From an uncultured virus (IMG/VR IMGVR_UViG_3300042522_000840) (Duplodnaviria > Heunggongvirae > Uroviricota > Caudoviricetes): a DNA stretch of 64,000 nt. Of this stretch, positions 681 to 56,642 are shown one piece after another. Location: IMG/VR virus record IMGVR_UViG_3300042522_000840. One strand, 5' to 3'. The stretch's first letter is position 1, and each line of letters opens with the position of its first letter. The translations under genes and the position numbers were made by a program. Below the pieces are notes generated by a model. That model saw only the letters and a list, made by a program, of their open reading frames with translations. It made no database searches and was not told the origin of the DNA.

Positions 681-693
681 TTTCAATAAAGTT

Positions 694-720
694 AAGGAAC
701 TCTTCGGGGTTCCTTTTTTT
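694..720 (+). terminator. Intrinsic terminator after psbA
   Basis: aaggaactc-ttcg-gggttcctt plus T run. Confidence 0.85.
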
Positions 721-721
721 A

Positions 722-833
722 TATAAATACTAATACCTGTGTGGTTCGCATCTATCAGGTGAAAAGGTGTCTTCGGGCACCTTTTCTAGTATAATGTATT
801 ATAAATATTATTGCGAACCATAACAGAGTAGAA
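722..833 (+). promoter_or_regulatory. Two-late-promoter sRNA/leader cassette, copy 1
   Basis: TATAAATA 722-729, stem-loop 735-760, hairpin 761-786, TATAAATA 800-807, complementary arm 812-826. Confidence 0.75.
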
Positions 834-14288: not shown

Positions 14289-17200
14289 ATGCCAGTTGTA
14301 GTAGGTTTAAGTTCGATTACTGGACTTTCCACAGTAACAAGTGGAAGTGATGCTGCTTACAAAGAATATGTTGATAATAAACTTGGTGGTTCTATACCAA
14401 GTATCACTGGAAATGAGAATGAATTTTTATTTACTAATGGTAGTAGTGTAAGTTGGGAACCAATTCAAGCAACTCAAGAATATACGGCAGCAGGAACTTA
14501 TACTTTTAATTTACCAACACAAGCAAAGAAGATTACAATCGAAGCAACTGGTGCAGGTGGTGGTGGTGCAAGTGGTGATGCAATGGCATCTGCATATACT
14601 CCTGGTTCTCTATGGGCACTGAGAACTGCAGGAACAACATTGCAGATGAATGCACTTGCATTTAAGGATAATGTATATTTACTTGGTGGAACTGCAGTAA
14701 CACCTATTTATTGGATTCTAAGAACTTCTGGTACTACAAGTGCATTGAATGCTTCGGTGTATATCAGTGATTATGTCTTGGGTGGTGCTTCTGGTGTTTT
14801 AGTTTCTTCAACAGATGCAGTTAGATGGACTTTAAGAACATCAGGAACTGTAGGTTCTATTAATGCTCTTGGAACTTATAGTGGAAATTATATTGCTGGT
14901 GGTACAGGTGCCACTGTGATGTGGACTTTAAGAACTTCTGGTTTTGCTACTAGTGATATTAATGCACTCACCTTTGCAAACAATACTTATGTTGCTGGTG
15001 GTGCTAGTGGAAGATTAAGTACCTCAACAGATTCAATCATCTGGACTGCAAGAACTTTGTCTTTTGGTGCTGGTACTGTTCTAGCACTCACTTTTGGAAA
15101 TACTCCTACTAATACTTATGTTGCTGCTGGTGGTGCTGGAGTCTTAAGAACCTCAACAGATGCGATTGCTTGGACTATAAGAACTGCTAGTTTTGGTGGT
15201 CAAATTCCTTATGCTCTTACTTATGCAAACAATACTTATCTTACTTGTGGTGCTGGTGGAGTCTTAAATACCTCAACAAATGCAATTTCCTGGACTTTAA
15301 GAACTTCTGGTGTTGCCACTAGTACTATTACTTGTCTTACTTTTGGAGATACGCCTGTCAATACTTATGTTGCTGGTGGAGGTACTTCCAGTGTAGTTGG
15401 AAGATTAAGTACTTCAACAGATGCGATTGCTTGGACTATAAGAACTGCTAGTTTTGGTGCAAATTTAATTAATACTCTTACATTTGCCAATAATACTTAT
15501 GTTGCTGGTGGTCAAGGTGGAAGATTAAATACCTCAACAGATGCAATTCATTGGACTTTAAGAACTTATGGTTTTGGTGCTATAGATATTAATGCACTCA
15601 CCTTTGGAAACAATACTTATGTTGCTGGTGGTGCTAGTGGAAACTTAAATATCTCAACAAATGCAATTGTTTGGACTTTAAGAACTTCTGGTTTTGCTGC
15701 TAATGCCATTTATGCACTTACCTTTGCAAACAATACTTATGTTGCTGGTGGTGTTAGTGGAATATTAAATACCTCACCATCCACCACACTAACCTCCACA
15801 GGACTCGGTGCTTATTTTTCAGTTTCAACAGATGAAATTGTTTGGGCTTTAAGAACCACAAATACCAATATAGAAACAATTAACTCTTTTGCAGTTGATA
15901 CATCAAATCGTATCGTTGCTGGATTTACTGACTATGATGGTCTTGTTAGAGACCTTATTACTTCTACTGATGGACTTTCTTGGGAGTTTAGAACTTCTGG
16001 TTTTGGTAATACGACGATTAATGCTTTAATATATGCGAATAGTCTTTATGTTGCTGGTGGTAATATTAGCACTAATGTTCAATGGACTTTAAGAACTTCT
16101 GGTACTACTAACAATCTTTCTGATATTATTTTTGAAAATAATACTTATGTTGCTGGTGGTTTTAATGGAGTCTTAAACACCTCAACAAATGCAATCACTT
16201 GGACTTTAAGAACTTCTGGTTTTGGTACTACTAATATTAATGCTCTTACTTTTGCAAACAATACTTATGTTGCTGGTGGTAATGGAAGATTAAACACCTC
16301 AACAGACGCAATCACTTGGGAATTAAGAACTTCTGGTTTTGGTGCTAATACTATTCGTGCTCTTACTTATTCAACATTTTATGTTGCTAGTAGTGATGGT
16401 GGAAAATTAAATACCTCAACAGATGCAATTGCTTGGACTTTAAGAACTGCAGGTGCTGCAAGTGGAAATCTTTATACTCTCATTTATGCAAACGATACTT
16501 ATGTTGTCGGTGGTGATAATGGAGTATTAAACACTTCAACAAATGCAATTGTATGGACTTTAAGAACTTCTGGTACTACTGCTGGATATGCTGCGCTTAC
16601 TTTTGCAAACAGCACTTATGTTGTTGGTGGTACTGGTGGAATATTAAATACTTCAACAGATGCTATTACTTGGACTTTAAGAACTTCTGGATTTTTTCTA
16701 AGTACTCTTTATGAGTTCATTTATGCAAACAATACTTATGTTGCTGGTGGTGAGGGTGGAAAATTAAATACTTCAACAGATGCAATCACTTGGACTTTAA
16801 GAACTTCTGGTACTGGTAATACTATTAATGCACTAACCTATGCAAATAATACTTATGTTGCTGCTGGTAATAATGGAGTCTTAAACACTGCTACTCAAAC
16901 ATCTCTAACAACTTTAGGTTTTGGACTTTCCACATCTACCGACTCAATCTCTTGGGATGCTAAAATACCTGGATTTGGTACTTCTGCAGTTCGTGCATTA
17001 ACTTATGGAACTGTTTATGTTGCTTCTGGTGATGCTGGTCGTTTAGCAACATCCGCAGATGGAAGTAACTGGACTGTAAGAACTACACCATTCACCACAA
17101 ACGCAATCAACTCATTAGTTTATAATAACGGTGTTTATGTTGCTGGTGGTGTAAGTGCTACTAATAGTGCCAATACAGCAACTTCTACTGATGGAATTGT

Positions 17201-19613
17201 ATGGATTTTAAGAACAACATCTACGACATCGGCAATTAATACAATTGGATTTGGAAATAATACTTATATTTTTGGTGGTGCTTCTGGAGTCACTGGAACA
17301 TCAACTCAAAACATCTTATCTGGTTTTGGAAACGGTGCCTATTTCTCTACATCAACAGACAGCTTATATTGGATACTTCGCACAACAAACTCTGCAATTC
17401 ATACTATTAACTCTATTGGAACCAGTAATGATTATATTGTTGCTGGGTGTAGTAATGCAATTGGTGATGGTGGTTTTATTTCAGTATCTACCGATAATAT
17501 CAACTGGACTTTAAGAACTTCTGGTTTTGGTACTACCACTATTAATGCTATGGTTTATGGTGGTGTTTATGTTGCTGGTGGAAACTCTGGAGTTTTAAGT
17601 TCTTCTACTGATACTATAAATTGGTCTTTAAGAACAGCAAATACTTCACCTATTAATTTTAATGCTCTTATTTATGGAAATAATACTTATATTTTTGCGG
17701 GTAATAGTGGAGTCTTAAATACCTCAACAGACGCAATTACTTGGACTAGAAGAACTTCTGGAATTTCTGCAGCTGTTAATATTCTTTCTCTTACTTATGG
17801 AAATAATATTTATGCTATTTGTGGTGAATCTGGAATATTAAATACTTCAACAGATGCAATTACTTGGACTTTAAGAACCTCAGGTAGAACATCAATTCTT
17901 CGTGGTCTTTCTTATGGTGGTTCGACTTATATTGCAAATGGTGATTCTGGTGTTGTTCTATCATCAACAGACGCAATCACTTGGGTCTTAAGAACTTCAA
18001 ATACCGCACAATCTTTATCGTCTTCTGTTGGTATTGGGAATACTTTTATCACTGCAGGCGCTGCTGGTGCTGTTTCTGCTTCTCCAGTTCGTCTTGGTTC
18101 TGGCGGTTCTGGCGGCGGCGGTGGAGCAACAGTCACTTGGGAATTAGATAAGTCTCAAATTACTGGATCAACACTTTCTGTGACTGTTGGTGCTGGTGGT
18201 ACAACAAGTACAGCAGGTGCAGGAACCACAGTATCTTGGTCGGGACCTGCAGGAACTTATACAATTACTGCAAATGGTGGTTCTGCTGGTACTGCTTATG
18301 TTGTTGGTGCTGGTGGTACGGTTCCAAGTACAACACTTAATTACTTAAGAGCAAGTGCAGGTGGTGCTGGTGCTTCTGGTCTTTATCCAGGTGTAACACC
18401 AACAGCAGCAGCAACAGCAACACTTGCATATCAAACAACTGGTGGTGGTGCTGGTGCTTATTCAATTGGTTATAATTTATTTGGTGGTGTTCTTGGTGGT
18501 CTTGGAGGAACACTGAACTATTATGGAAACACAATTAGTGCAACAAATAATCAAATACCAGGAAGTTCTTCTTTAAGTATTTCTGGACTTTCTTATGGTA
18601 ATGGTGGAAGTGGTGGAGGTGCTGCAAGTAGAGATGCGTTGTTCTGGACTGCAAGAACTGCTAGTTTTAGCACTTCTATTATTAGATCAGTTGCGTTTGC
18701 AAATAATACTTATCTTTCTGGTGGTGCTAGTGGAATCTTAAATACCTCAACAGATGCAATTACTTGGATTTTAAGAACTGCTGGTTTTGGTACTGCTGAT
18801 ATTTATTCTATCATATATGAAACTTTTTATGTTGCGAGTGGTGATAGTGGAAGATTAAATACCTCAACAGATACTATTATTTGGACTTTAAGAACTTCTG
18901 GTTTTACTTCTACTATTAGAGCACTCACTTTTGCAAACAATACTTATGTTGCTGGTGGTGATAGTGGAAGATTAAATACTTCAACAGATTCAATTAGTTG
19001 GATTATAAGAACTTCTGCTTTTGCTACTCTTGCCATTAATGAAATCATTTATGCAAATGGAATTTATGTTGCTGGTGGTAGTAGTGGTTCAAAAATAAAC
19101 ACTTCAACAGATGCAATTACTTGGGAATTAAGAACTTCTGGACTTAATAATACATCTAATTACAACATTCATGGTCTTACTTATGGAAATTCTATCTATG
19201 TCACTATCAATACCTGGGGTGAAACTGCAACTTCAACAGATGCAATTGCTTGGACTTTGAGAACTTCTGGTATTTTTACTGGTAATAGTGTATTTGGACT
19301 CGGTTTCTTTAATAATACTTATGTTACAGGCACATCTGGATTTTTAAGTGTCTCAACAGATGCAATTACTTGGCAATTAAGAACTTCTGCTTTTACTGCT
19401 GGTAATGTACATTCAGTTACTTTTGGAAATAATACTTATGTTGCTGGTGGTTCTAGTGGAATTCTCGTAACATCTCCAATCGCATCAGCAGGCACAGGAG
19501 GTTCTGGAGTCAAAGGTGGTGGAGGTGGTGGAGGTGGTTATGATGAAGTCAGCAACTCTGCAGGTTCTGGTGGAACTGGTGGTGCTGGTTATGTTCGTAT
19601 CAGTTGGGTATAA
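14289..19613 (+). CDS. Large Gly-rich virion protein with WTLRTS beta-propeller-like repeats (paralogue 1)
   Basis: About 39-aa repeat WTLRTSGF..INALTFANNTYVAGG..G.LNTSTDAI; ends GGAGYVRISWV. Confidence 0.75.
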   Translation: MPVVVGLSSITGLSTVTSGSDAAYKEYVDNKLGGSIPSITGNENEFLFTNGSSVSWEPIQATQEYTAAGTYTFNLPTQAKKITIEATGAGGGGASGDAMASAYTPGSLWALRTAGTTLQMNALAFKDNVYLLGGTAVTPIYWILRTSGTTSALNASVYISDYVLGGASGVLVSSTDAVRWTLRTSGTVGSINALGTYSGNYIAGGTGATVMWTLRTSGFATSDINALTFANNTYVAGGASGRLSTSTDSIIWTARTLSFGAGTVLALTFGNTPTNTYVAAGGAGVLRTSTDAIAWTIRTASFGGQIPYALTYANNTYLTCGAGGVLNTSTNAISWTLRTSGVATSTITCLTFGDTPVNTYVAGGGTSSVVGRLSTSTDAIAWTIRTASFGANLINTLTFANNTYVAGGQGGRLNTSTDAIHWTLRTYGFGAIDINALTFGNNTYVAGGASGNLNISTNAIVWTLRTSGFAANAIYALTFANNTYVAGGVSGILNTSPSTTLTSTGLGAYFSVSTDEIVWALRTTNTNIETINSFAVDTSNRIVAGFTDYDGLVRDLITSTDGLSWEFRTSGFGNTTINALIYANSLYVAGGNISTNVQWTLRTSGTTNNLSDIIFENNTYVAGGFNGVLNTSTNAITWTLRTSGFGTTNINALTFANNTYVAGGNGRLNTSTDAITWELRTSGFGANTIRALTYSTFYVASSDGGKLNTSTDAIAWTLRTAGAASGNLYTLIYANDTYVVGGDNGVLNTSTNAIVWTLRTSGTTAGYAALTFANSTYVVGGTGGILNTSTDAITWTLRTSGFFLSTLYEFIYANNTYVAGGEGGKLNTSTDAITWTLRTSGTGNTINALTYANNTYVAAGNNGVLNTATQTSLTTLGFGLSTSTDSISWDAKIPGFGTSAVRALTYGTVYVASGDAGRLATSADGSNWTVRTTPFTTNAINSLVYNNGVYVAGGVSATNSANTATSTDGIVWILRTTSTTSAINTIGFGNNTYIFGGASGVTGTSTQNILSGFGNGAYFSTSTDSLYWILRTTNSAIHTINSIGTSNDYIVAGCSNAIGDGGFISVSTDNINWTLRTSGFGTTTINAMVYGGVYVAGGNSGVLSSSTDTINWSLRTANTSPINFNALIYGNNTYIFAGNSGVLNTSTDAITWTRRTSGISAAVNILSLTYGNNIYAICGESGILNTSTDAITWTLRTSGRTSILRGLSYGGSTYIANGDSGVVLSSTDAITWVLRTSNTAQSLSSSVGIGNTFITAGAAGAVSASPVRLGSGGSGGGGGATVTWELDKSQITGSTLSVTVGAGGTTSTAGAGTTVSWSGPAGTYTITANGGSAGTAYVVGAGGTVPSTTLNYLRASAGGAGASGLYPGVTPTAAATATLAYQTTGGGAGAYSIGYNLFGGVLGGLGGTLNYYGNTISATNNQIPGSSSLSISGLSYGNGGSGGGAASRDALFWTARTASFSTSIIRSVAFANNTYLSGGASGILNTSTDAITWILRTAGFGTADIYSIIYETFYVASGDSGRLNTSTDTIIWTLRTSGFTSTIRALTFANNTYVAGGDSGRLNTSTDSISWIIRTSAFATLAINEIIYANGIYVAGGSSGSKINTSTDAITWELRTSGLNNTSNYNIHGLTYGNSIYVTINTWGETATSTDAIAWTLRTSGIFTGNSVFGLGFFNNTYVTGTSGFLSVSTDAITWQLRTSAFTAGNVHSVTFGNNTYVAGGSSGILVTSPIASAGTGGSGVKGGGGGGGGYDEVSNSAGSGGTGGAGYVRISWV

Positions 19614-19625
19614 GGAGGTAAACAA

Positions 19626-22262
19626 ATGACAACAGCAGGTTCTAATTTTATTTCAGGTATTACTACAACAGTCTTTGCTACAACTGATGTAGTCAACAAG
19701 GACTATGTGGATGCAAATGTTCAACCACTACCATCACAAACTGGAAATGCTGGTAAGTTTCTCACCACGACTGATGGAACGAATATCTCTTGGGATTATG
19801 TTTCTAACTATCAAGAGTTTACAACAACTGGAAGTCAAACTTTTAATGTTCCAAGTTATGCCAATCTCTTATACATTGAAGCAACTGGTGCTGGTGGTGG
19901 AGGAGGTGCGGGGCAGTCTAATGCACAAGTATATCAAGGTGTGACTTGGACTTTAAGAACTTCTGGTACTGTAGAAACACTGTCTTCCATTACTTATGGT
20001 GGGTTATATGTTGTAACTGGAACAACACCACCAGGTGGAATTAGAACTTCAACAAACGCAATCATTTGGACTGCAAGAACTTCTGGTGCTGGTGTAGCAC
20101 TCCAATCTAGTACATATTCATCATTTTATGTTGTTGGTGGTAATAGTGGAGTATTAATTACTTCAACGGACACAATTGCCTGGACTTTAAGAACTTCTGG
20201 TACTGGTAATAATACTACCAAACTTGTTTATTTAAATAATACTTATCTTGCTGGTGGGGGATTTGGAGATTTAAGAACTTCAACAGACGCAATCACTTGG
20301 ACTTTAAGAACTTCTGGGTTTGCTACTAGTATTATTAGATCTTTTTCTTTTGATGGTAGTATTTATCTTGCAGGGGGTTCTAGTGGGGGGTTTATCACTT
20401 CAACAGATGCAATTACTTGGGTATTAAGAACTTCTAGTTTTGCTACTAATGATATTAATGCACTCACCTATGGAAACAATACTTATGTTGCTGGTGGTGC
20501 TAGTGGAGTCTTAAATACTTCAACAGATGCAATTGCTTGGACTTTAAGAACTTCTGGTTTTGCTACTACTAATATTAGAGCACTCACCTTTGCAAACAAT
20601 ACTTATGTTGCTGGTGGTGTTAGTGGAATCTTAAATACCTCAACAGATGCAATCACTTGGACTTTAAGAACTTCTGGTTTTGGTTCTAATGGTATTCTTG
20701 CACTCACCTTTGGAAACAATACTTATGTTTCTGGTGGTGATAGTGGAGTCTTAAATACTTCATACTCACAAGTATCAGGACAAGGTGGTTCATCAGGTTC
20801 TTATACTTCTTGGTACATTCCAAAAAATATTATTTCTTCAAATCTCACAGTTAATCCTGGTGTTGGTGGTGCAGGTGCAACCACAGATGCTGGCACAGGT
20901 TCGGCAGGAGCAGGAACTACAATATCCTGGACTGGACCTGGAGGAACTTATACCATCACTGCAAGTGGTGGAGGTGCTGCAGGTGTCGCAGGAACAGCAC
21001 AAGTAGCATCTCAATCAAGTTTTTATTATACAACTGCTGGAGGTTCTGGAGCACTTCAAACACCAATCGGTGCTGGACTCACAGCAACCACACAAACCAA
21101 TCAATTCCAACCAACAGGAGGTGGAAGTGGTGCTGGTTCTACAGCATCTGCAGGAGGTTCTGGTGGTGTTATTAATGTTTATGGAATCTCTACATCGGCA
21201 TCTGGTGGAAATAATACAGGAACCAATGGTACAAATGCCGTTGTAATCTCTGGACTTCCTTATGGTTCTGGTGGAGGTGGTGGTGGTGCAGGAGTTGGAA
21301 ATTGGTCTTGGACTTTGAGAACTACTGGTACTACTAGTGGTCTTAATGCTCTTACTTATTCAACATTTTATGTTGCTGCTGGTGCTAGTGGAGTTTTAAA
21401 CACTTCAACAGATGCAATCACTTGGACCTTAAGAACTACTGGTACTACCGGTAGTTTTAATGATCTTATTTATACAAATAATCTTTATGTTGGTGGTGGT
21501 GATGGTGCAAGATTATATACCTCAACAGATGTAATCGCTTGGACTGCAAGAACGACCGGTCTTAATCCCTCATATGGAATACAATCTTTAATATTTGATA
21601 ATAGTAATTATTTTACTATCAATGTTTTTAGTGAATTAGCATCTTCAACAGATTCAATCTCCTGGACCCTAAGAACTTCTGGTTTTACCGCTTCTAATGA
21701 ATTACATACTCTTCTGTTCGGTAATAATGTTTATCTTATTGGTACTTCAGGAAGATTAAGTACCTCAACAAATGGAATCCAATGGACTGCAAGAACTGCT
21801 GGAGCTAGTTTTACTCCTACTGATAGTCTTTATGCAAACAATCTTTATATTGTTGTTGGTCGTACTGGAAGATTGATTACTTCAACAGATGCAATCACTT
21901 GGACCTTAAGAACTGGTGGTTCTGGTAGTGCCCCCCAATATACGGATATTACTTATGGGAATAATAATTATGTTCTTAGCGGTACTTCTGGAATCTTAAA
22001 CACTTCAACAGACACAATCACCTGGACTTTAAGAACTTCTGGTTTTGGTGCTAATACTATTGATGGAAGTGTTTTTGGAAACAATACTTATGTTGTTGCT
22101 GGTGCTAGTGGAATATTAGCAACTTCACAAGGAACTGCAATAGCAGCAACTGGTGGTAATGGTGCTCGTGGAGGTGGTGGAGGTGGTGGTGCTTCTATCG
22201 GTTCTACTTTTGGTAATGGTGGTAATGGTGGTGATGGTTATGTGAAGATTACTTGGTGGTAA
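19626..22262 (+). CDS. WTLRTS-repeat Gly-rich virion protein (paralogue 2)
   Basis: Same N-terminal YVD..LPSQTGNAGKFL, QEFTT..IEA.GAGGGG, repeats, ends GGDGYVKITWW. Confidence 0.75.
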   Translation: MTTAGSNFISGITTTVFATTDVVNKDYVDANVQPLPSQTGNAGKFLTTTDGTNISWDYVSNYQEFTTTGSQTFNVPSYANLLYIEATGAGGGGGAGQSNAQVYQGVTWTLRTSGTVETLSSITYGGLYVVTGTTPPGGIRTSTNAIIWTARTSGAGVALQSSTYSSFYVVGGNSGVLITSTDTIAWTLRTSGTGNNTTKLVYLNNTYLAGGGFGDLRTSTDAITWTLRTSGFATSIIRSFSFDGSIYLAGGSSGGFITSTDAITWVLRTSSFATNDINALTYGNNTYVAGGASGVLNTSTDAIAWTLRTSGFATTNIRALTFANNTYVAGGVSGILNTSTDAITWTLRTSGFGSNGILALTFGNNTYVSGGDSGVLNTSYSQVSGQGGSSGSYTSWYIPKNIISSNLTVNPGVGGAGATTDAGTGSAGAGTTISWTGPGGTYTITASGGGAAGVAGTAQVASQSSFYYTTAGGSGALQTPIGAGLTATTQTNQFQPTGGGSGAGSTASAGGSGGVINVYGISTSASGGNNTGTNGTNAVVISGLPYGSGGGGGGAGVGNWSWTLRTTGTTSGLNALTYSTFYVAAGASGVLNTSTDAITWTLRTTGTTGSFNDLIYTNNLYVGGGDGARLYTSTDVIAWTARTTGLNPSYGIQSLIFDNSNYFTINVFSELASSTDSISWTLRTSGFTASNELHTLLFGNNVYLIGTSGRLSTSTNGIQWTARTAGASFTPTDSLYANNLYIVVGRTGRLITSTDAITWTLRTGGSGSAPQYTDITYGNNNYVLSGTSGILNTSTDTITWTLRTSGFGANTIDGSVFGNNTYVVAGASGILATSQGTAIAATGGNGARGGGGGGGASIGSTFGNGGNGGDGYVKITWW

Positions 22263-22290: not shown

Positions 22291-25200
22291 ATGGCAACAT
22301 TAGACAGCAATAAGGTTATTGATGTAAGTGTAGTATCTTCTGCGACCGATGCTGTAAATCGACAATATATTGATGATAATGCACTTCCAAGTACAACTGG
22401 AAATGCTGGGAAGTTTTTGGCAGTTTATCCTGGTGCTGCTTATTGGATTTTAAGAACTTCTGGTTTTGGTACTTTAATTTATTCTCTTACTTATGCAAAC
22501 AATGCTTATATTGCTAGTGGTAATACTGGAACCTTAAATACTTCAACAGATGCAATTGCTTGGACTTTAAGAACTTCTGGTTTTGCCACTAATGTCATTT
22601 ATGCACTCACCTTTGCAAACAATACTTATGTTGCTGGTGGTCAAAGTGGAACCTTAAATACTTCAACAGATGCAATTGCTTGGATTTCAAGAACTTCTGG
22701 TTTTGGTACTAATCAAATTTATGCACTCACTTACGCAAACAATAATTATATTGTAGGTGGTCAAAATGGAAGATTAAATGTATCAACAAACGCAATTGCT
22801 TGGACTTTAAGAACTTCTGGTTTTGGTTCTAATGCTATTAATACATTCATTTATGTAAATAGTGTTTATATTGCTGCTGGTGATAATGGAAATATAAGAA
22901 CCTCAACAGATGCTATTGTTTGGATTTTAAGAACTTCTGGAACCACCAATACTCTTTATTCTCTTACTTATGCAAACAATATTTATGTTGTTAGTGGAAC
23001 TGCTTCGCTTTTGAATACTTCAACAGATACTATTGCTTGGACTTTAAGAACTTCTGGTTTTGGTCTTAATGTTATTCGTGCGATTACTTATGCAAACAAT
23101 ACTTATCTTGCTGGTGGTGGTACTGGAGTCCTAAACATCTCAACAGATGCAATTGCTTGGACTTTAAGAACCTCATCTACTACATTAGATTTATATTCTC
23201 TCAACTACATTAATAATCAATACATTTATGCTGGTAATAACAGTGTACTCGCAACCTCCCAAGCAACTCAACAAATCTGGGAACCAATAAACTCCACATC
23301 TACAATACCCACAGACCCAGTAACATACAAAGGTTCTCAAGAATTCACAACATCAGGAGCACAAACATTTTTTATTCCTCCAACAGCAACACAGTTTTAT
23401 ATTGAGGCAATCGGTGGTGGTGGTGGTGGAGCATCAGGACGATACACAGGAACAATCGGTTCTGGTGGTGGTGGAGGTTCTGGTGCTTATAATGCCTGGT
23501 TGATTCGTCGTGGAGAACTTGGAAATGCTTCTACGATGACTGCGACTCCTGGTGCTGGTGGTCGTGGTGGAAACAATCGTGGTATGAGTACCAGTACTGA
23601 TGGTATTAACTGGTTTACTGTTCCTGGTGGTTCTAAGTTTGGTACTAGTGATATTAATACTCTTACTTATGGTGGATATCTTTATGTTGCCGGTGGTGCA
23701 TCTTCAGTATTAAGTACTTCTCCTGATGGTACTAACTGGACTTTAAGGACTGCTAGTTTTGCTACTGATACTATAAATGCTCTTACTTATTCGACATTTT
23801 ATGTTGCTGCTGGTGGTGCTGCTGGTCGTGGAAGATTAAACACCTCAACAGACGCAATCACTTGGACTTTAAGAACTTCTGGAGTTGGTTCTAATGCTAT
23901 TCAAACACTTACTTTTGGAAACAATATTTATGTCTTGGGGGGTGCTTTTTCTGGCGGATCTCCAGCAATAAATGTATCAACTGATGCAATTAATTGGACT
24001 TTAAGAACTTCGGGTTTTGGTTCTAATAATATGCTTGCTCTCACTTATGGAAACAATATTTATGTTGCTTCTTCTGGTACTGCAAACCTAAGAACATCAA
24101 CAGACACAATTGTATGGGTTTCAAGAACTTCTGCTGGTTCTGCTAATGCTCTTATTTTTGTAAACAATACTTATATTGCTGGTGGTGTTTCTGGAATCTT
24201 AAACACTTCAACAGACACAATCACCTGGGAATTGAGAACTGCTGGGTTTACTAGTACTATTCGTGCTCTCACCTACACAAACAACCTCTATATAACAGCA
24301 GGAAATTCTGGATTTTTAGCATCTTCCACAGACACAATCACCTGGACTTTAAGAACTTCACTGTTCCAAGCACAAACTATTAATGCTCTCACATACGGAA
24401 CCACCTTTGTTGCTGGTGGTGCTTCTTCTGGTGGTGGTTCTTCTGGTGCTTCTACAACTGTCACTTGGACTGGAAACACTCCAACGGGCACTGCGACTTA
24501 TACACTAACTTCTGCTGCTGGTGGTGGTGCAAGTGATACGGCAACCACAGCAGGAACCGCAGGTGCCGCAGCAGCAGTCACACTCAATCCTCTTTATAAT
24601 ACTGCTGGTCTTGTTGGTGGTGCTGGACTTTCTTCTGGTGTTGGTTCAAATAGCACAATACAAGCAAACTCATTCCAAGTGACTGGTGGTGGAGGAGGAG
24701 CATTTAATTCCTTTACTGGTGGTAATTCAGTTTCTTATTATTATGGAAATACTTATACAAATAATGGTGGAAGTAATACTGGTGGTAGTGGTTCCGATGG
24801 TATTGATGGAACTTATACGGGTTCTTATGGTTCTGGTGGAGGTGGTGGAGGTGCTTTGAGTGAAGGAGTTACGAGTTGGTATTTAAGAACTTCTGGTACT
24901 ACGAATCAATTTAATGCCCTTACTTTTGGAAACAATACTTATGTTGCTGGTGATGATATTGGAAAATTAAATACCTCAACAGATGCAATTGCTTGGACTA
25001 GCAGAACTTCTAGTTTTGGTACTAATTATATTTCTGCACTTACCTTTGCAAACAATACTTATGTTGCCGGCGGTCTTAGTGGAGTCTTAAATACTTCAAC
25101 AGATGCAATTGCTTGGACTTTAAGAACTTCTGGATTTGGTGGTAATTTTATTCCTGCACTCACCTTTGCAAACAATACTTATGTTGCTGGTGGTCAAGGT

Positions 25201-25848
25201 GGTGTATTAAATACCTCAACAGATGCAATTTCTTGGACTTTAAGAACTTCTGGTTTTGGTGGTAGTACTATTAGAACATTTACCTTTGGAAATAATACTT
25301 ATCTTGCTGGTGGTGCTAGTGGAATCTTAAATACCTCAACAGATGCAATTCGTTGGACTTTAAGAACTTCTGCTTTTGGTACTAATCAAATTAATGCACT
25401 CACTTTTGAAAATAATACTTATCTTGCTGGTGGTGCTAGTGGAATCTTAAATACCTCAACAGATGCAATTCGTTGGACTTTAAGAACTTCTGGTTTTGGT
25501 ACTGCTCAAATTAATGCTCTCAATTTTGCAAGCAATCTTTATGTTGCTGGTGGTCAATCTAGTCCTGGAAGAATATTTACTTCTACCGATGGAATTGTTT
25601 GGTCTTCTAGGACTTCTAATGTTGTTAATTCTATTCAAGCACTCATCTATGCAAACAATACTTATGTTGCTGCTTGTGCTGGTGGAGAATTAACATTAGC
25701 ATCATCAACCTCACAATCCGCAGCAGGAAACGGAGGCAACGGCACCAGAGGTGGTGGAGGTGGTGGAGGTGGATACTCTCAAGAGCAAAATCGTTTTGGA
25801 CTTGGTGGTGATGGTGGTAATGGATATGTAAGAATTACTTGGTGGTAA
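22291..25848 (+). CDS. WTLRTS-repeat Gly-rich virion protein (paralogue 3)
   Basis: Same architecture; ends GGNGYVRITWW; late promoter-like ATAAATA upstream. Confidence 0.75.
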   Translation: MATLDSNKVIDVSVVSSATDAVNRQYIDDNALPSTTGNAGKFLAVYPGAAYWILRTSGFGTLIYSLTYANNAYIASGNTGTLNTSTDAIAWTLRTSGFATNVIYALTFANNTYVAGGQSGTLNTSTDAIAWISRTSGFGTNQIYALTYANNNYIVGGQNGRLNVSTNAIAWTLRTSGFGSNAINTFIYVNSVYIAAGDNGNIRTSTDAIVWILRTSGTTNTLYSLTYANNIYVVSGTASLLNTSTDTIAWTLRTSGFGLNVIRAITYANNTYLAGGGTGVLNISTDAIAWTLRTSSTTLDLYSLNYINNQYIYAGNNSVLATSQATQQIWEPINSTSTIPTDPVTYKGSQEFTTSGAQTFFIPPTATQFYIEAIGGGGGGASGRYTGTIGSGGGGGSGAYNAWLIRRGELGNASTMTATPGAGGRGGNNRGMSTSTDGINWFTVPGGSKFGTSDINTLTYGGYLYVAGGASSVLSTSPDGTNWTLRTASFATDTINALTYSTFYVAAGGAAGRGRLNTSTDAITWTLRTSGVGSNAIQTLTFGNNIYVLGGAFSGGSPAINVSTDAINWTLRTSGFGSNNMLALTYGNNIYVASSGTANLRTSTDTIVWVSRTSAGSANALIFVNNTYIAGGVSGILNTSTDTITWELRTAGFTSTIRALTYTNNLYITAGNSGFLASSTDTITWTLRTSLFQAQTINALTYGTTFVAGGASSGGGSSGASTTVTWTGNTPTGTATYTLTSAAGGGASDTATTAGTAGAAAAVTLNPLYNTAGLVGGAGLSSGVGSNSTIQANSFQVTGGGGGAFNSFTGGNSVSYYYGNTYTNNGGSNTGGSGSDGIDGTYTGSYGSGGGGGGALSEGVTSWYLRTSGTTNQFNALTFGNNTYVAGDDIGKLNTSTDAIAWTSRTSSFGTNYISALTFANNTYVAGGLSGVLNTSTDAIAWTLRTSGFGGNFIPALTFANNTYVAGGQGGVLNTSTDAISWTLRTSGFGGSTIRTFTFGNNTYLAGGASGILNTSTDAIRWTLRTSAFGTNQINALTFENNTYLAGGASGILNTSTDAIRWTLRTSGFGTAQINALNFASNLYVAGGQSSPGRIFTSTDGIVWSSRTSNVVNSIQALIYANNTYVAACAGGELTLASSTSQSAAGNGGNGTRGGGGGGGGYSQEQNRFGLGGDGGNGYVRITWW

Positions 25849-38659: not shown

Positions 38660-39342
38660 TGTTCAATCACGTTGATTTGATTCTTCCGAAACTTGAACGG
38701 GAGACTATAGATGGTGTTCGATATTATTCAATTCCAGAGGAAGAAGAACTACTCAAACTTGTTTCAATTACTTCTGTTACAAGTCATTTTAACAAAGAAA
38801 TCTTTGTGAAGTGGCGTAAGAAAGTTGGAGATAAGGAAGCAGACCGTATCACAAAACTTGCAACAAGTCGTGGTACGGATATGCATACTCTTACAGAGTA
38901 TTTTCTGAAAAATCAAGATCTTCCTACGGATATTCTTCCAATCTCAGAGTTTCTGTTCAATATTTCTAAGTCAACTCTCAAGAATATAAATAATATTCAC
39001 GCTCTTGAAGGTTCCCTATATAGTAAGCAATTAGGTATTGCGGGAACCGTCGATTGTATTGCAGAATACAATGGCGAATTGGCAATCATAGACTTCAAGA
39101 CTTCTAAAAAACCAAAACCACGCGAGTGGATCGAACATTATTTTGTTCAATGTATGGCATATGGGTGTATGCTTTACGAACTGACTGGTATTTCAGTTAA
39201 AAAACTTGTAATCATTATGGCTTGCGAAAATGGAGAATGCGTCGTCTATGAAGAAAGAGACAAATCAAAGTACATCAAACTACTCACCGAATACATTAGA
39301 GAGTTTGTTAGAGATAAACTGGAATCATATGGAACCAAATAA
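38659..39342 (+). CDS. PD-(D/E)xK exonuclease
   Basis: SITSV...RGTDMH...AGTVDCIAEY...IIDFKTS...QC.AY. Confidence 0.85.
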   Translation: MFNHVDLILPKLERETIDGVRYYSIPEEEELLKLVSITSVTSHFNKEIFVKWRKKVGDKEADRITKLATSRGTDMHTLTEYFLKNQDLPTDILPISEFLFNISKSTLKNINNIHALEGSLYSKQLGIAGTVDCIAEYNGELAIIDFKTSKKPKPREWIEHYFVQCMAYGCMLYELTGISVKKLVIIMACENGECVVYEERDKSKYIKLLTEYIREFVRDKLESYGTK

Positions 39343-39589
39343 AGAATTAGAACAAGTTATAGAAAATAAGTTTCTTACACCTTCCAAGTTTTCTCTTGAA
39401 ATAGAGCACATTGTGTCAAGTGAAAATATGAATTACATTGATGCTATTTGTCATTATTGTGAAATCAATAATCTTGAGGTAGATTCAGTAACAAAACTTA
39501 TTTCAAAACCTCTGAAAGAAAGATTGAAATATGATGCTATCAATCTTAATTTTATGAAAAAAACATCGAGAGCAAAATTGCCTTTGTGA
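39329..39589 (+). CDS. gp33: Late transcription coactivator gp33
   Basis: FSLEIE...YIDAICHYCE...KLISKPLKERLKYDA..LNFMKKTSRAKLPL; synteny with gp59. Confidence 0.85.
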   Translation: MEPNKELEQVIENKFLTPSKFSLEIEHIVSSENMNYIDAICHYCEINNLEVDSVTKLISKPLKERLKYDAINLNFMKKTSRAKLPL

Positions 39590-39595
39590 TTATAA

Positions 39596-39698
39596 CTAAA
39601 TAATGATGCCTGACTTAGGTGACACTTTTCAGGTAGAGGAGGGCACTTGATGCCCTTTTCTTGTATAAATACTTATGTCACCTAAGTTAAGAGCAGAA
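39596..39698 (+). promoter_or_regulatory. Two-late-promoter sRNA/leader cassette, copy 2
   Basis: CTAAATA 39596-39602, stem-loop 39608-39634, hairpin 39636-39660, TATAAATA 39664-39671, complementary arm 39676-39694. Confidence 0.75.
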
Positions 39699-40187
39699 AT
39701 GTATTACGTTTATCTCTATTTGAGAGAGGATATGACTCCTTATTATGTTGGTAAAGGTATTGGTAGAAGGTGCTATAATCCTCATATTAGAGGTGGCGGA
39801 GATATATGCCCTGTCGATAAAGACAGAATTAAGATTATAAAATATTTTGATATTGAAGAAGATGCCTACATATTCGAAGAATGGTTAATCTCTGTCTATG
39901 GTAGAAAATGTGATGGTGGAATACTAATTAATATACACGATGGCGGAAAAAATGGCTCAAGTTTGCCGCTTGACCCTATATTGCGTGAGAAGCATAAGAA
40001 AGAATATATGCGTGAGTATAATAAGAAATATTACCACGCAAACCCAGAGAGGGTGAAAGCGTGGAGAGACAAAAGAATAGAGAGGCGTCGTGAGACAGAG
40101 CGTGCTTGGCGTGCTAAAAATAAAGATAGATTAAATCAACGCAAACGAGAACTTTATCACCAGAAAAAACTTGAAAAGGCAGATTGA
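39699..40187 (+). CDS. GIY-YIG-like endonuclease with basic helical C-terminus
   Basis: MYYVYLYLREDMTPYYVGKG..RR...E..LI..YGRK...N..DGG. Confidence 0.8.
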   Translation: MYYVYLYLREDMTPYYVGKGIGRRCYNPHIRGGGDICPVDKDRIKIIKYFDIEEDAYIFEEWLISVYGRKCDGGILINIHDGGKNGSSLPLDPILREKHKKEYMREYNKKYYHANPERVKAWRDKRIERRRETERAWRAKNKDRLNQRKRELYHQKKLEKAD

Positions 40188-40212
40188 CTTCACTCCAGAA
40201 GCGTGGTATGAT
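40184..40212 (+). promoter_or_regulatory. Sigma70-type promoter for gp59
   Basis: TTGACT-17 nt-TATGAT. Confidence 0.7.
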
Positions 40213-40235
40213 ACATACGATTGTAATGTAATAAA

Positions 40236-40832
40236 TTGAAGGTGTCTCCATATCAAGTTTATTGTGAATACCTTGCTTTGAAATCGCATTTTAGTAATCC
40301 AAAATATGATTACTTCAAATATAATAAAAAAGTCCGTGCGTCTGTAACATCGTTTAACCGTCGAACCGATAAATACTGGTTCGAAAAAACAAGTCGAAAG
40401 TATAAGGACGAAGAGATTGTTAATTTCTTGGTTGCAAACTTTGTAGAATCTACTAGCGTAAATCAAATATGGATTGGAGAAATTATCAACTCTGGAGAAA
40501 GGACTTACGCAGATTGGATGCGGAGACAACAGAGTTTGACTTACTTATTCAAGGAACAAAGCAACGAATTCTTCTTGGAGACCAAATTAGAGGATGCCTT
40601 GAATTGTTCCAAAGGGCATCCACCAGTCCTCAAAAAGTTTCTAAGCGGGCAATTGTCGCTAGAAACCTTAACAATCTACGAAAAAATATTCCATTTCTCA
40701 AAAGATTTTGATAAGAAATTGCTAGATCCAGTGTGGGAAACCGTAAGTTTAAAAATCAAAAAATATACACCATTCCTAAATACGGATGTATTCCAGTTTA
40801 AAAAGATTTTAAGGACAATTATAGATGAGTAA
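40236..40832 (+). CDS. gp59: Helicase loader gp59
   Basis: YLALKSHF...YDYFKY...F..R.DKYWFEK; position between gp33 and gp32. Confidence 0.88.
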   Translation: MKVSPYQVYCEYLALKSHFSNPKYDYFKYNKKVRASVTSFNRRTDKYWFEKTSRKYKDEEIVNFLVANFVESTSVNQIWIGEIINSGERTYADWMRRQQSLTYLFKEQSNEFFLETKLEDALNCSKGHPPVLKKFLSGQLSLETLTIYEKIFHFSKDFDKKLLDPVWETVSLKIKKYTPFLNTDVFQFKKILRTIIDE

Positions 40833-41798: not shown

Positions 41799-42725
41799 AT
41801 GAGCTTTCAAAATCTTAAAAAACAATCCAAACTCGGTAATCTTACCGCCAAACTTGTTAAGGAAGTTGAGAAGATGAATTCCTCAAGTTCTTCCTCCGAT
41901 GAACGTGTATGGCGTTTAGAATGTGATAAAGCAGGTAATGGATTCGCTGTTATTCGTTTTCTTCCTGCTCCGAATGGTGAGGACCTACCATTCGTGAAAC
42001 TCTACAGTCACGCATTTCAAGGTCCTGGCGGATGGTATATAGAATCAAGTTTGACTACTCTGGGTCAGAAGGATCCTGTGTCGGAACTGAACTCTGAACT
42101 CTGGAACAACGGCACTGATGCTGGTAAGGAACTTGCCCGCAAGCAGAAGCGTAAACTGACTTATATCTCCAACATTTACGTTGTGAAGGACCCTGCTAAT
42201 CCCTCCAACGAAGGTAAGGTCTTCCTGTATAAGTTTGGTAAGAAGATCTTTGACAAACTGACTGCTGCAATGCAACCTGAGTTTGAAGATGAGGAAGCAA
42301 TTGATCCGTTTGATTTCTGGCAAGGTGCTAACTTCAAACTGAAGGCAAAGAACGTTGCTGGTTATCGCAACTATGATTCCAGTGAGTTTGCCGCACAAGG
42401 TGCTTTGCTGGACGACGATGATGCAATGGAAGCAATCTGGAAGAAGCAATATTCTCTTGCTGAACTTGTTGCTGCTGATCAGTTCAAGTCTTATGATGAA
42501 TTGAAGAAGCGTCTTGACTATGTGTTGGGTTCCAAAGGTTCCCGCCGTGTGGATGAAGAAGTTGCTGAAGAAGAGACCTATTCCCGTGGTCCTGCGAAAG
42601 ATCTTGATGAAGATCTTCGCACCGAACTCAACAATCTTCAACCCACCCGCCGTGCTGCTGCGGTTGAGGAAGATGAGGACGATGATGCGTTGTCGTATTT
42701 CGCAAAATTAGCATCTGATGATTGA
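41799..42725 (+). CDS. gp32: Single-stranded DNA-binding protein gp32
   Basis: AVIRFLPAP, HAFQGPGGWYIE, FGKKIFDK, GANFKLK, YRNYDSS, acidic tail. Confidence 0.96.
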   Translation: MSFQNLKKQSKLGNLTAKLVKEVEKMNSSSSSSDERVWRLECDKAGNGFAVIRFLPAPNGEDLPFVKLYSHAFQGPGGWYIESSLTTLGQKDPVSELNSELWNNGTDAGKELARKQKRKLTYISNIYVVKDPANPSNEGKVFLYKFGKKIFDKLTAAMQPEFEDEEAIDPFDFWQGANFKLKAKNVAGYRNYDSSEFAAQGALLDDDDAMEAIWKKQYSLAELVAADQFKSYDELKKRLDYVLGSKGSRRVDEEVAEEETYSRGPAKDLDEDLRTELNNLQPTRRAAAVEEDEDDDALSYFAKLASDD

Positions 42726-42728
42726 TGT

Positions 42729-42828
42729 CTAAATATTAATGCTCTAATAAGGTCGCACTTTTAGAGAAGGGTGGAGAAATCCACCCTATTTTATTATAAA
42801 TACTATTGCGACCTTAATTTAGAAGCAG
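42729..42828 (+). promoter_or_regulatory. Two-late-promoter sRNA/leader cassette, copy 3
   Basis: CTAAATA 42729-42735, stem-loop 42742-42766, hairpin 42768-42787, TATAAATA 42795-42802, complementary arm 42807-42827. Confidence 0.75.
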
Positions 42829-43500
42829 ATGGAATACTACACTTACGCATACTTGCGTGAAGATGGAACTCCTTACTATATTGGGAAAGGAAAGGGTAGA
42901 AGAGCATTTTTAAAGCATAGTGGTTTTTATCCACCATCAAAAAAGAGAATTTTATTCTTAAAGAAAAATCTTTCCGAAGAAGAGGCATTTAGACACGAAA
43001 TTTATATGATTTCAATCTTTGGTAGAAAAGATTTAGGAACAGGTATTCTTCATAACAAAACTGATGGTGGAAAAGGATGCTCTAAAAAAGTAATGACCGA
43101 ACAAGATATTCAAAACAGAAAAAAAGCAAGACTTGGAAAACCTTTATCCGAATCTCATAAAAGAAAAATTGCAGAAGCAAATAGAGGAACTCCAAAAACT
43201 ATGACCGAAAAAAGAAAGCAATCGGATATAGAAAAAGGTTTAAGGGCAAGAGGAAAATTAGTTGGAGATAAAAATCCGACTAAAAGACCAGAAGTTAGGA
43301 AAAAAATAAGTGATTCTTGTAAGGGAAGAAAACCTTGGAATAATGGTATTCAAAATTCAGATATAATGGGAGGCAAAAATCCAAGAGCGAGAAAACTATG
43401 CTATAATGGTGTAGTATATGATTGCATAAAAGATGCTGTAAAAATGACTGGTAGATCAAAATATTATATTTACAAGTATAGTGTTTTTTATGAAAAGTGA
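42829..43500 (+). CDS. GIY-YIG-like homing endonuclease with NUMOD3-type motifs
   Basis: YYTYAYLREDGTPYYIGKGKG; close paralogue of 834..1496 N-terminus. Confidence 0.85.
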   Translation: MEYYTYAYLREDGTPYYIGKGKGRRAFLKHSGFYPPSKKRILFLKKNLSEEEAFRHEIYMISIFGRKDLGTGILHNKTDGGKGCSKKVMTEQDIQNRKKARLGKPLSESHKRKIAEANRGTPKTMTEKRKQSDIEKGLRARGKLVGDKNPTKRPEVRKKISDSCKGRKPWNNGIQNSDIMGGKNPRARKLCYNGVVYDCIKDAVKMTGRSKYYIYKYSVFYEK

Positions 43501-44080
43501 TTATTATATTCAAAAAGTTCCAAAATCAGAAATAAAAGAATTATTATATAATCATCATTATCTTAAAGATATATCAAAAGATTTCAAAAGCGGATATAAT
43601 TATTCTTTGTATAAAAAATCTTTTACAGATATAATGAATATTGGCGGATCATTAGGTGCCTGCGTTTTTACAAACTTACCAGTACCAGAAATAGCACAAG
43701 GTGCTTTTGGATTAGAACGAAATGAACAACAAGGACTCTTCGAACTCTCAAGACTTTGCATCGAACCTAGTACGCAGTCATGCGAATATAACATCACTTC
43801 TTGGTTTGTGTCACGAGCGATTAGACAACTTCGGAAAGATACTGAAGTTAAAGCAATCATTTCTTATGCTGATTCAGATTACCATTCTGGTACAATTTAT
43901 CGTGCTTGTAACTTTAAGTATGTAGGTCTCACAGACCCTAAAAAAGATTTCTATTATTCAGACGGAACTAAACACTCTCGTGGAAAAGTAAAAGGTGCTG
44001 AAGGAGAATGGAAAGACCGCTCCCGCAAGCACCGATATGTGATGATGTTTGATAAGAATCTAGAATTAAAATGGATTTGA
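43490..44080 (+). CDS. Mom-like (GNAT-fold) putative DNA-modification protein
   Basis: HHYL...ELSRLC...ISYAD..HSGTIYRACNF.Y.G. Confidence 0.7.
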   Translation: MKSDYYIQKVPKSEIKELLYNHHYLKDISKDFKSGYNYSLYKKSFTDIMNIGGSLGACVFTNLPVPEIAQGAFGLERNEQQGLFELSRLCIEPSTQSCEYNITSWFVSRAIRQLRKDTEVKAIISYADSDYHSGTIYRACNFKYVGLTDPKKDFYYSDGTKHSRGKVKGAEGEWKDRSRKHRYVMMFDKNLELKWI

Positions 44081-44716
44081 TGCTTTAGTATTTTCAGTTC
44101 TAATCAATCTATTATCTACATACTGCGATGATTTATCATAAGTCATCGCTTTTCTTGTATCATTGATAATTTGTTGTAGATAGATTGGTTTTAAAACATA
44201 AATTGTTCTTTTTTCTTCATTTTTAGCAACCTCATATTCATAGTTACTTACGCCAGTTACTGGATTTAATGTTGCTGTTGGAAGACTTGGATTTGGAATT
44301 GTAAAGTTGGCATCAACTACTTTACCAGCAGGTAGAATTAGTCTGTTTTGAGAGTCTTTAACTTCGGTAGTTTCATAATGGTGAATTGCATTTAAATCAT
44401 TACCATACTTTTCATAAGAATAATCATAGATATCTTTACTTGATAGTGGCCATTCATCTCTAATACGAGTAATACCAGCACTTACAATGACTACCCAGTC
44501 GTATTGAGTACTTCCATAAAGTTCTTCTGCAACTGTTTCTGGACGAGCGCCATCAACAATTTGGTACTTATCAAAAACTGTAAATACATTTTGTAAATCA
44601 TCGCGAAGTTTAACTCTACGAAAAAGATTTTTTACAGTTAAATACTGATCTGATGATTTGCTATCAGGTAAGAATGATTGATATTCTAGGTTTGGTAATT
44701 CTCTAAAGTAAGTCAT
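44066..44716 (-). CDS. gp53: Baseplate wedge protein gp53
   Basis: YFRELPN...KNLFRR...RPETVAEELYG...WP...HHYET. Confidence 0.88.
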   Translation of the reverse strand: MTYFRELPNLEYQSFLPDSKSSDQYLTVKNLFRRVKLRDDLQNVFTVFDKYQIVDGARPETVAEELYGSTQYDWVVIVSAGITRIRDEWPLSSKDIYDYSYEKYGNDLNAIHHYETTEVKDSQNRLILPAGKVVDANFTIPNPSLPTATLNPVTGVSNYEYEVAKNEEKRTIYVLKPIYLQQIINDTRKAMTYDKSSQYVDNRLIRTENTKASNPF

Positions 44717-56475: not shown

Positions 56476-56547
56476 GGGGGTATAGCTTAATGGTTAGAGC
56501 GGGCTCCTTATAAGGGCTTAGTCTGGGTTCAACTCCCAGTATCCCCA
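56476..56547 (+). tRNA. trnI: tRNA-Ile(UAU)
   Basis: Acceptor gggggta/tatcccc, anticodon loop cttataa, T arm ctggg-ttcaact-cccag. Confidence 0.88.
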
Positions 56548-56570: not shown

Positions 56571-56642
56571 GCTCGTTTAGCAATCTGGGAATGCAATCGT
56601 CTCATAAACGATAGAAGGTCGGATCGTAACCGACAACGAGCA
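56571..56642 (+). tRNA. trnM: tRNA with CAU anticodon (elongator Met, or Ile2)
   Basis: Acceptor gctcgtt/aacgagc, anticodon arm atcgt-ctcataa-acgat, T arm gtcgg-atcgtaa-ccgac. Confidence 0.82.

Follow-up and report, generated by a model that had tools for sequence, protein, structure and literature searches.

Three putative homing endonuclease genes (HEGs) lie in a 64,000-nucleotide (nt) stretch of DNA from an uncultured virus (IMG/VR record IMGVR_UViG_3300042522_000840), and each was found to be preceded by the same kind of control cassette, ~105 nt long. The whole stretch, hereafter called the window, is DNA of a T4-like cyanomyovirus. The structure of the cassette is real and has been selected, and the cassette elaborates a type of translational lock that was already known, giving it a new and portable form. 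The upstream half, made up of a late-promoter box (P1), a hairpin (H1) and a terminator-like hairpin (T), is the new part. In our preferred reading, to which about an even chance is given, free-standing HEGs of T4-like cyanophages are accompanied on their travels by this element, which would be a portable 5' control cassette acting in two layers. The structure behind the first layer has been shown here, and its mechanism would follow the precedent of phages T4 and Aeh1; the second layer, which we infer, would be a small RNA (sRNA) made from the upstream half.

All three copies lie on the + strand and share one order of parts: P1, a 4-nt spacer, H1 with a loop of 13–16 nt, T, which is GC-rich and has a U-run, a second late-promoter box (P2), another 4-nt spacer, a leader arm (arm 2) and the ATG. 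Arm 2 is complementary to the 5' strand plus loop of H1 (arm 1) and ends 1–3 nt before the ATG, and P2 reads TATAAATA in each copy. The sequences read as a preliminary description of this DNA had it, with a two-promoter layout before each of the three nuclease genes; the arms, which it had placed 5–7 nt after their promoter, in fact begin at the 5th nt, after the 4-nt spacer. The parts are as follows, with the energies of T and of the duplex between the arms.

722–836, +: cassette copy 1
722–729, +: P1 of copy 1, late-promoter box TATAAATA, directly after the psbA terminator
735–760, +: H1 of copy 1, ACCTG and CAGGT around a 16-nt loop
734–750, +: arm 1 of copy 1 (H1 5' strand and loop)
761–786, +: T of copy 1, UUCG-type loop and U-run; −15.1 kcal/mol
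800–807, +: P2 of copy 1, consensus TATAAATA, within the loop of the long-range helix
812–830, +: arm 2 of copy 1, duplex −23.3 kcal/mol; ends 3 nt before the ATG (834)
39595–39701, +: cassette copy 2
39595–39602, +: P1 of copy 2, ACTAAATA, 5 nt past the gp33 stop codon
39608–39634, +: H1 of copy 2, with arm 1 at 39607–39624
39635–39661, +: T of copy 2, followed by TTTTCTTG; −15.0 kcal/mol
39664–39671, +: P2 of copy 2, TATAAATA
39676–39695, +: arm 2 of copy 2, duplex −24.8 kcal/mol; ATG at 39699
42728–42833, +: cassette copy 3
42728–42735, +: P1 of copy 3, TCTAAATA, 3 nt past the gp32 stop codon
42741–42766, +: H1 of copy 3, with arm 1 at 42740–42757
42768–42787, +: T of copy 3, followed by ATTTTATT; −13.8 kcal/mol; flagged as terminator-like by the scan
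42795–42802, +: P2 of copy 3, TATAAATA
42807–42827, +: arm 2 of copy 3, duplex −23.2 kcal/mol; ends 1 nt before the ATG (42829)

The 8-mer found at P1 of copy 2, ACTAAATA, also precedes other genes of this phage. A conserved leader peptide at arm 1 was considered and rejected: an ATG is frequent there, but copy 1 has ATA and copy 3 reads ATG-CTC-TAA.

The minimum-energy fold of each ~122-nt stretch is a long-range helix of 17–18 base pairs (bp) around T, with energies of −41.5, −39.1 and −37.8 kcal/mol and z-scores of −5.58, −5.42 and −5.77 for copies 1 to 3; none of the 200 shuffles made per copy folded as well. At least 577 relatives of the nucleases were found in IMG/VR, of which the best 80 loci were used, and a covariance model of the cassette (R1) was made from relatives. 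Strong matches to R1 in the window fall exactly at the three sites (89.6, 87.5 and 74.5 bits), the sole other match being weak (2051–2153, 22.2 bits, E 0.19) and consisting of a terminator followed by a late promoter. Over the window and 83 loci R1 identified 69 sites, which rose to 90 sites, 84 of them distinct, after loci from five larger genomes were joined. The nearest viral record (G001) has three more nuclease genes, and two of its cassettes are identical to copies 2 and 3 of the window. Rfam gave no match at the three sites, whether at gathering scores or at E ≤ 1; its lone match was a sub-threshold one to TarB over the psbA terminator.

Covariation statistics were taken from the 61 distinct rows of the first R1-fitted alignment. 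Paired cells made up 91.4%, against 68.7% in shuffles, a percentage that is inflated because the alignments were fitted to the structures under test (R1 and the model R2 introduced below), which tells against the reading advanced here; the pair types are unambiguous despite this fitting, one column pair, for example, holding GC 27 times, UA 13, AU 12 and CG 5. Two-sided changes were seen in 29 of the 30 pairs. The covariation score was 0.634, compared with 0.229 in shuffles, none of 500 of which reached it, and 0.07–0.13 with slid partners. Covariation is strong in all three elements, namely the long-range helix, T and the stem of H1. The duplex of arm 1 with its own leader amounts to −22.4 ± 1.7 kcal/mol, against −9.3 ± 4.1 for non-cognate combinations, and most copies inside one genome are mutually orthogonal, with exceptions such as L103 and L108, whose arms are identical.

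The model R2 comprises only the half made up of P1, H1 and T. Under this model the 5-bp stem of H1 is 92.9% paired and shows two-sided changes in 4 of its 5 pairs; the inner two pairs are 52.3% paired, so H1 is supported as a 5-bp stem only. When arm 1 and the spacer were folded together, the minimum-energy structure closed the 5' end in 83 of 84 cassettes, and H1 had a mean energy of −6.0 kcal/mol with the cognate spacer, against −3.4 in chimeras carrying the spacer of another cassette. These results show that the 5' strand of arm 1 has a pair of covarying partners, the 3' strand of H1 and the 3' end of arm 2; each cassette has three helices, two of which are mutually exclusive. The preliminary description had held that both pairings, the local stem and the loop-to-leader duplex, are kept while the primary sequences differ. 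This is borne out, since both covary (R1, R2) and the search of related viral DNA recovered 84 distinct copies, with the complementarity kept in homologous loci.

Across the 84 distinct rows, G·U pairs outnumber A·C combinations by 57 to 19 in the long-range helix and by 150 to 22 in T. The excess of G·U indicates that the structure resides in RNA of the gene strand. Double-stranded DNA would give no such asymmetry and an RNA of the opposite strand would give the reverse, which argues against an operator, a cruciform or an antisense transcript like CfrI. CfrI, an antisense RNA of ~225 nt in cyanophage S-PM2, links psbA and the endonuclease gene F-CphI (Millard et al. 2010, as described in PMC2984593 and in the annotation of S-PM2). 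CfrI is like the proposed sRNA in that it is a non-coding RNA at the junction of psbA and a homing endonuclease gene in a T4-like cyanophage; unlike the cassette structure, which lies on the gene strand by the ratio of G·U to A·C, it comes from the opposite strand, and S-PM2 has no cassette.

That the element works at the level of DNA, its arms being protein operators or sites of recombination or cruciform formation and not RNA partners, is very unlikely. I-TevI does repress its own late promoter through an operator resembling its homing site, according to the available text of a review (PMC2988022), and each arm of the cassette abuts a promoter. However, the asymmetry just described is one of + strand RNA, the design is common to unrelated DNA-binding proteins, and the energy of the helix is tightly kept (standard deviation 1.7 kcal/mol) with its sequence free to vary. 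As a dose limiter, the I-TevI autorepression summarized in that review (PMC2988022) is comparable to the cassette, whose version would be transferable between nucleases.

In the first layer of the preferred two-layer reading, RNA entering from upstream would either stop at T or read through it. In read-through RNA, arms 1 and 2 would form a helix of ~19 bp, at about −22 kcal/mol, that would bury the leader to within 1–4 nt of the AUG and leave the nuclease untranslated. The aligned helix does end 1–4 nt before the ATG in 63 of 84 cassettes, the ATG lying past the aligned end in the other 21. P2 is situated between the arms; it reads TATAAATA in 81 of 84 cassettes, and arm 2 begins 3–5 nt after it. 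In T4, transcription starts at the sixth nucleotide after the late-promoter box, and application of this rule puts the start of the P2 mRNA at about the second nucleotide of arm 2. The P2 transcript would lack arm 1 and carry an open leader of ~21 nt, with the AUG at +22 or +23, and would be translatable late in infection. The leader was unpaired in copies 1 and 3 when the P2 mRNA was folded alone. An antiterminator or attenuator was also considered and was rejected, no conserved pairing of H1 with the 5' strand of T being visible by eye; with P2 downstream of T, attenuation would in any case be pointless.

The core of this first layer has well-described relatives. T4 I-TevI, I-TevII, I-TevIII and segB and Aeh1 mobE possess a hairpin that masks the ribosome-binding site, and a late promoter lets late transcripts escape it, as set out in the available text of the review PMC2988022, within which Gibb & Edgell 2007 and 2009 are cited. 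Like these locks, the cassette has a stable helix that masks the ribosome-binding region on upstream-derived transcripts and a TATAAATA late promoter placed so that late transcripts lose the 5' arm, and it sits before selfish nuclease genes of T4-like phages. It differs from them in several ways: its helix is long-range, with a terminator-like hairpin enclosed in it; there is a second late-promoter box, exactly 4 nt upstream of arm 1; arm 1 takes part, in addition, in a covarying hairpin of its own; and the whole forms a conserved portable module of ~105 nt, with 84 distinct copies before at least six families of open reading frame (ORF).

It is a substantial possibility, though one we lean against, that the cassette is a lock of the T4 type acting in cis only, composed of T, the helix masking the ribosome-binding site and the nested P2, and that any short P1-to-T product has no function. 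P1 and H1 would then serve the lock or the mobility of the element: H1 might be a co-transcriptional holding fold for arm 1, and P1 might provide short homology for recombination into late-promoter regions or supply locked read-through RNA for downstream genes. Such a mechanism is experimentally established in T4 and Aeh1 (PMC2988022, available text). It accounts for T, P2, both arms and the linkage to HEGs, and intergenic regions of this phage commonly carry a terminator with a late promoter directly behind it, as at 694–729 and 2051–2153. The preliminary description had named a cis switch on read-through RNA only as its alternative; the core of the cassette is the T4/Aeh1 device, and this explains most of the anatomy. 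A lock in cis gives no reason, however, for the covariation of the 3' strand of H1, which competes with the lock. The two-layer model is ranked slightly ahead because a cis-only lock needs none of P1, the fixed spacing and H1.

To what extent the parts occur together was seen in 86 HEG 5' regions. A late-promoter box is located within 75 nt of the start in 78 of these, the other 8 having no promoter box, and 67 of the 78 also have a TAAATA box 40–110 nt further upstream. The remaining 11 of the 78 comprise 7 with a second architecture (type B), 3 without a cassette and 1 with a cassette whose P1 is GATATATA. Type B (7 of 86) has no P1 box, and its arm 1 lies within a compound GGGC...GCCC terminator-like hairpin, followed by a late promoter and a complementary leader; its folds alternate between the compound hairpin and the long-range helix. 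The type B loci, ~100 nt upstream of the nuclease start, are L007, L008, L011, L018, L020, L059, L060 and L070. When cassettes were counted without P1 as a defining feature, the box was present in 66 of 67 type A cassettes, that is, those of the architecture found in the window.

In its layout the upstream half resembles a separate gene, with P1, a predicted start at the base of H1, arm 1 in the loop of H1, and T. Of the 84 distinct cassettes, 83 have TAAATA at P1 and 83 have 4 nt between P1 and the helix, whereas the arms have diverged beyond recognition; a lock in cis offers no reason for this near-invariance and rigid spacing. P1 occurs as NATAAATA (58 cassettes) or NCTAAATA (25), and both variants are also found 20–35 nt before ordinary genes of this phage. 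ATAAATA shows a coding-strand bias, with 27 occurrences on the + strand and 10 on the − strand. T has a mean energy of −14.6 ± 1.9 kcal/mol. The predicted P1-to-T product is 54–55 nt in the window, and with the P2 box as end point the family has a median of 57 nt (range 49–72); it folds as two adjacent hairpins with arm 1 in the loop of H1. Cofolding of this product with the P2 mRNA gave a gain of −13 to −15 kcal/mol.

In the second layer, the most likely product would be a compact two-hairpin RNA of ~55 nt, made late in infection. It would bind the cognate P2 mRNA in trans, over the first ~19 nt of that mRNA, and so limit the dose of the nuclease. A governor of this kind would be independent of the protein, which would explain its service to unrelated nucleases. 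That P1, H1 and T constitute a promoter-to-terminator sRNA gene inside a mobile HEG unit, a same-strand tandem antisense that caps nuclease dose, is put forward tentatively, at somewhat below an even chance. The separate late sRNA of ~50 nt in the preliminary description is retained on these terms: the conservation of P1 and of its spacing, together with T, makes a separate late RNA of ~55 nt reasonable and well motivated on sequence grounds, if unproven.

One of the three sites allows the boundary of the inserted DNA to be placed. In S-SRM01, S-SKS1 and Syn9 gp33 and gp59 share a 4-nt overlap, with no intergenic space between them; S-SRM01 is about 80% identical to the window in this region. 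The window has the following insert at the junction.

39590–40235, +: inserted unit of 646 nt between gp33 and gp59, comprising P1, H1, T, P2, leader and HEG

P1 starts 5 nt inside the left junction of this insert, which means that it arrived with the element and was not a resident promoter; a lock in cis leaves this arrival of P1 with the insertion unexplained. The gp59 gene of the window starts with TTG, whereas nuclease-free relatives have at its start an ATG that overlaps the stop codon of gp33. The 3' end of the insert, before gp59, contains a sigma-70-like promoter at 40184–40212 (TTGACT-17-TATGAT with TG), which is similar to the promoters that T4 seg and mob genes are known to harbour for genes downstream of them. 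The psbA site is less clean and gives some support to a cis-only lock, since at the position of P1, immediately behind the homologous psbA terminator, S-PM2 carries a native late promoter. The terminator and the adjoining late-promoter box are conserved between window 693–729 and L084 2862–2903 (S-PM2); S-PM2 carries a different endonuclease (F-CphI, endonuclease VII-like) and no cassette. No boundary could be drawn at the psbA site from G001, whose third nuclease gene is in a different context without flank homology.

Several further points weigh against a two-layer cassette, most of them bearing on the sRNA. T has a short U-tract (typically UUUUCUUG) that pairs in part with an A-run lying upstream, the P2 box directly follows T in about seven cassettes, and a simple terminator scan flags T in only one of the three window copies (copy 3). 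The full T4 consensus is present at P1 in only 13 of 84 cassettes, so P1 may be weak, and type B, being without a P1 box, implies that the lock can work without it, as a cis-only reading would have it. R1 found no cassette in the five marine model phages Syn9, P-SSM2, P-HM2, S-RSM4 and S-PM2, which we take to be those with published transcriptomes. An sRNA repressor made alongside its target mRNA also needs a dose-limiting rationale. Finally, T4 and Aeh1 manage the same control without an sRNA.

As for linkage, R1 matched 26 cassettes across S-SRM01 and four large IMG/VR records, and all 26 end at the start of an ORF of 146–298 amino acids (aa). Twenty-two of these ORFs are recognisable homing endonucleases of several families, and at least six unrelated kinds of ORF are represented. 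Fifteen of the 26 were searched against Pfam and 6 against PHROGs, their mates being placed by their N-termini, with the following distribution.

Window nuclease family: 11
HNH-like with NUMOD3: 4
YVYYSY..GRGY with NUMOD3: 4
Pfam GIY-YIG protein: 1
HNH_3 plus NUMOD4 protein: 1
Endonuclease VII/HNH-like protein: 1
Family without matches (MTSQSPRIY...): 4

The preliminary description had tied the cassette to the YLRED..PYYIGKG nuclease, a specificity that does not hold in view of the families above. Its idea of an RNA-partnered nuclease also loses ground, since the spread over unrelated ORF families argues against such a partnership; a general-purpose module for the control of HEGs is the better reading. 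The cassettes found in cultured phages are as follows.

S-SRM01: 6
B23: 3, two of them weak
S-B68 (grown on Synechococcus WH7803): 1, at 44327–44428 of MK016664
S-N03: 1, weak
ACG-2014f and Sf-CH5: 0 each, though the nuclease is present

In ACG-2014f (L119), S-N03 (L120) and Sf-CH5 (L121) the nuclease relative lies 15–63 nt past the upstream gene with no cassette before it, the weak R1 match of S-N03 being elsewhere in its genome; these loci look like promoter-less insertions of the T4 seg type.

The least probable of the readings considered is a pair resembling a type I toxin–antitoxin system, or a nuclease that uses the small RNA as partner or guide. The RNA is gene-specific, with cognate duplexes ~13 kcal/mol stronger than non-cognate ones, and the mutual orthogonality of most copies in one genome would fit such a pairing. 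Yet the cassette serves at least six unrelated ORF families, of which the HNH, endonuclease VII-like and GIY-YIG proteins carry NUMOD DNA-binding repeats of their own, and its products are nucleases of 146–298 aa and not small membrane toxins. The sole complement of the RNA is its own leader, L103 and L108 have identical arms within one genome, and R2 found the P1-H1-T half nowhere outside full cassettes in the 320 kb searched. Type I antitoxins of the tisB/istR-1 kind are sRNAs that repress toxic genes through a short and imperfect match to the 5' untranslated region. The proposed RNA is like them in being small, having a putative promoter and terminator of its own, lying beside its target, and in that it would pair with ~19 nt of a leader and block initiation. 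It is unlike them in being encoded in tandem on the same strand, its complementarity coming from an inverted repeat, in having a nuclease of 160–220 aa as its target, and in that the same arm would also act in cis. With such a target, and no small toxin peptide, the type I antitoxin label used in the preliminary description does not fit.

Among published descriptions, the nearest is that of Dassa et al. 2009, who reported hairpins, often with TATAAATA inside, before free-standing endonuclease genes in ocean metagenomes, at loci of the 'fractured gene' kind, and read them as translational control of the Aeh1 type (PMC2677866, available portion). These hairpins have in common with the cassette that they occur in cyanophage-like loci, with a 5' hairpin of the untranslated region shared by GIY-YIG and another endonuclease family; those of their Figure S4, as far as that portion presents them, are simple, ~55 nt long, and have no internal terminator or upstream promoter box. 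The available portion of the paper (PMC2677866) makes no mention of a second promoter, a terminator or a small RNA. Short terminated regulatory transcripts are also known from lambdoid late promoters, namely the PR'-tR' RNA and StxS (PMC7547250, available text). There too a phage late promoter followed immediately by a terminator gives a short regulatory RNA; in contrast to the cassette, these RNAs are under Q antitermination, have their targets elsewhere, and are associated with neither a second promoter nor a self-complementary leader in the text available. The literature searched, which took in few subscription journals and excluded figures, yielded no account of a cassette with two promoters or of an sRNA at endonuclease genes of cyanophages.

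Homing endonucleases need a very low and late dose, as otherwise they damage the phage that carries them, and in T4 this dose is controlled gene by gene, by means of hairpins and of autorepression by the protein. In the present case a single mobile RNA module holds the control; it is found before at least six unrelated ORF families, mostly recognisable nucleases, and reaches new sites together with the gene. The module helps to explain how HEGs spread in cyanophage genomes while essential neighbours such as gp33/gp59, gp32 and psbA are left undisturbed. Should the P1-to-T unit be a real sRNA, T4-type gene control would gain an RNA layer acting in trans, the first regulator of this kind for homing endonucleases of T4-like phages. 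It would be a protein-independent governor, swappable between unrelated endonuclease families, and the cassettes would form a natural library, with dozens of sRNA/leader pairs orthogonal to one another. Rfam lacks the element, and it goes unrecognised in genome annotations, in which the nucleases of S-SRM01 (L085 1587–2345), Sf-CH5 (L121) and B23 (L122), relatives of the window nuclease, are labelled 'translation initiation factor 2', a mislabel that presumably comes from lysine-rich NUMOD3 repeats.

The nuclease genes of the window and their neighbours are located as follows.

15–680: psbA
694–715: psbA terminator, from the terminator scan
834–1496, +: homing endonuclease gene 1, 220 aa; GIY-YIG-like N-terminus, then five NUMOD3 repeats
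39230–39589: gp33
39699–40187, +: homing endonuclease gene 2, 162 aa; start chosen by alignment with genes 1 and 3
40236–40832: gp59
41799–42725: gp32
42829–43500, +: homing endonuclease gene 3, 223 aa; overlaps at its 3' end with the beginning of the Mom-like gene (43481)
43481–44080: Mom-like protein gene

The three nuclease genes are paralogues, genes 2 and 3 being 39% and 53% identical to gene 1, and the N-terminal sequence YxYxYLRED..PYYxGKG is common to all three products. Gene 2 has a further in-frame ATG at 39675, inside arm 2 of copy 2. In Pfam searches NUMOD3 scored 92.4 bits in gene 1 and 28.9 bits in gene 3 and was not found in gene 2, and Pfam PF01541 (GIY-YIG) matched none of the three. 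A profile of the three nucleases gave weak matches (E 0.002–0.003) to solved chains named 'GIY-YIG domain-containing protein', covering the YxY...YxGKGxGxR segment, and PHROG families labelled 'homing endonuclease' match all three. On these matches we call the window genes GIY-YIG-like free-standing HEGs, a designation drawn from sequence similarity.

Some other features of the window were recorded. Directly 3' of nuclease gene 1 is a small ORF (1500–1617) for a peptide of ~38 aa with a hydrophobic core, after which comes a late-promoter box at 1632–1639. Two tRNA genes (56476–56547 and 56571–56642) are directly followed by a match to a group I intron (56709–56899, 62.6 bits). A periodic repeat of ~120 nt, ...TTAAATAC[CT]TCAACAGATGCAATT..TGGACTTTAAGAACTTCTGG..., occurs ~30 times between about 15260 and 25450; it sits inside the giant ORFs 14289–19613, 19626–22262 and 22291–25848 and implies repeats of ~40 aa in large, probably structural, proteins.

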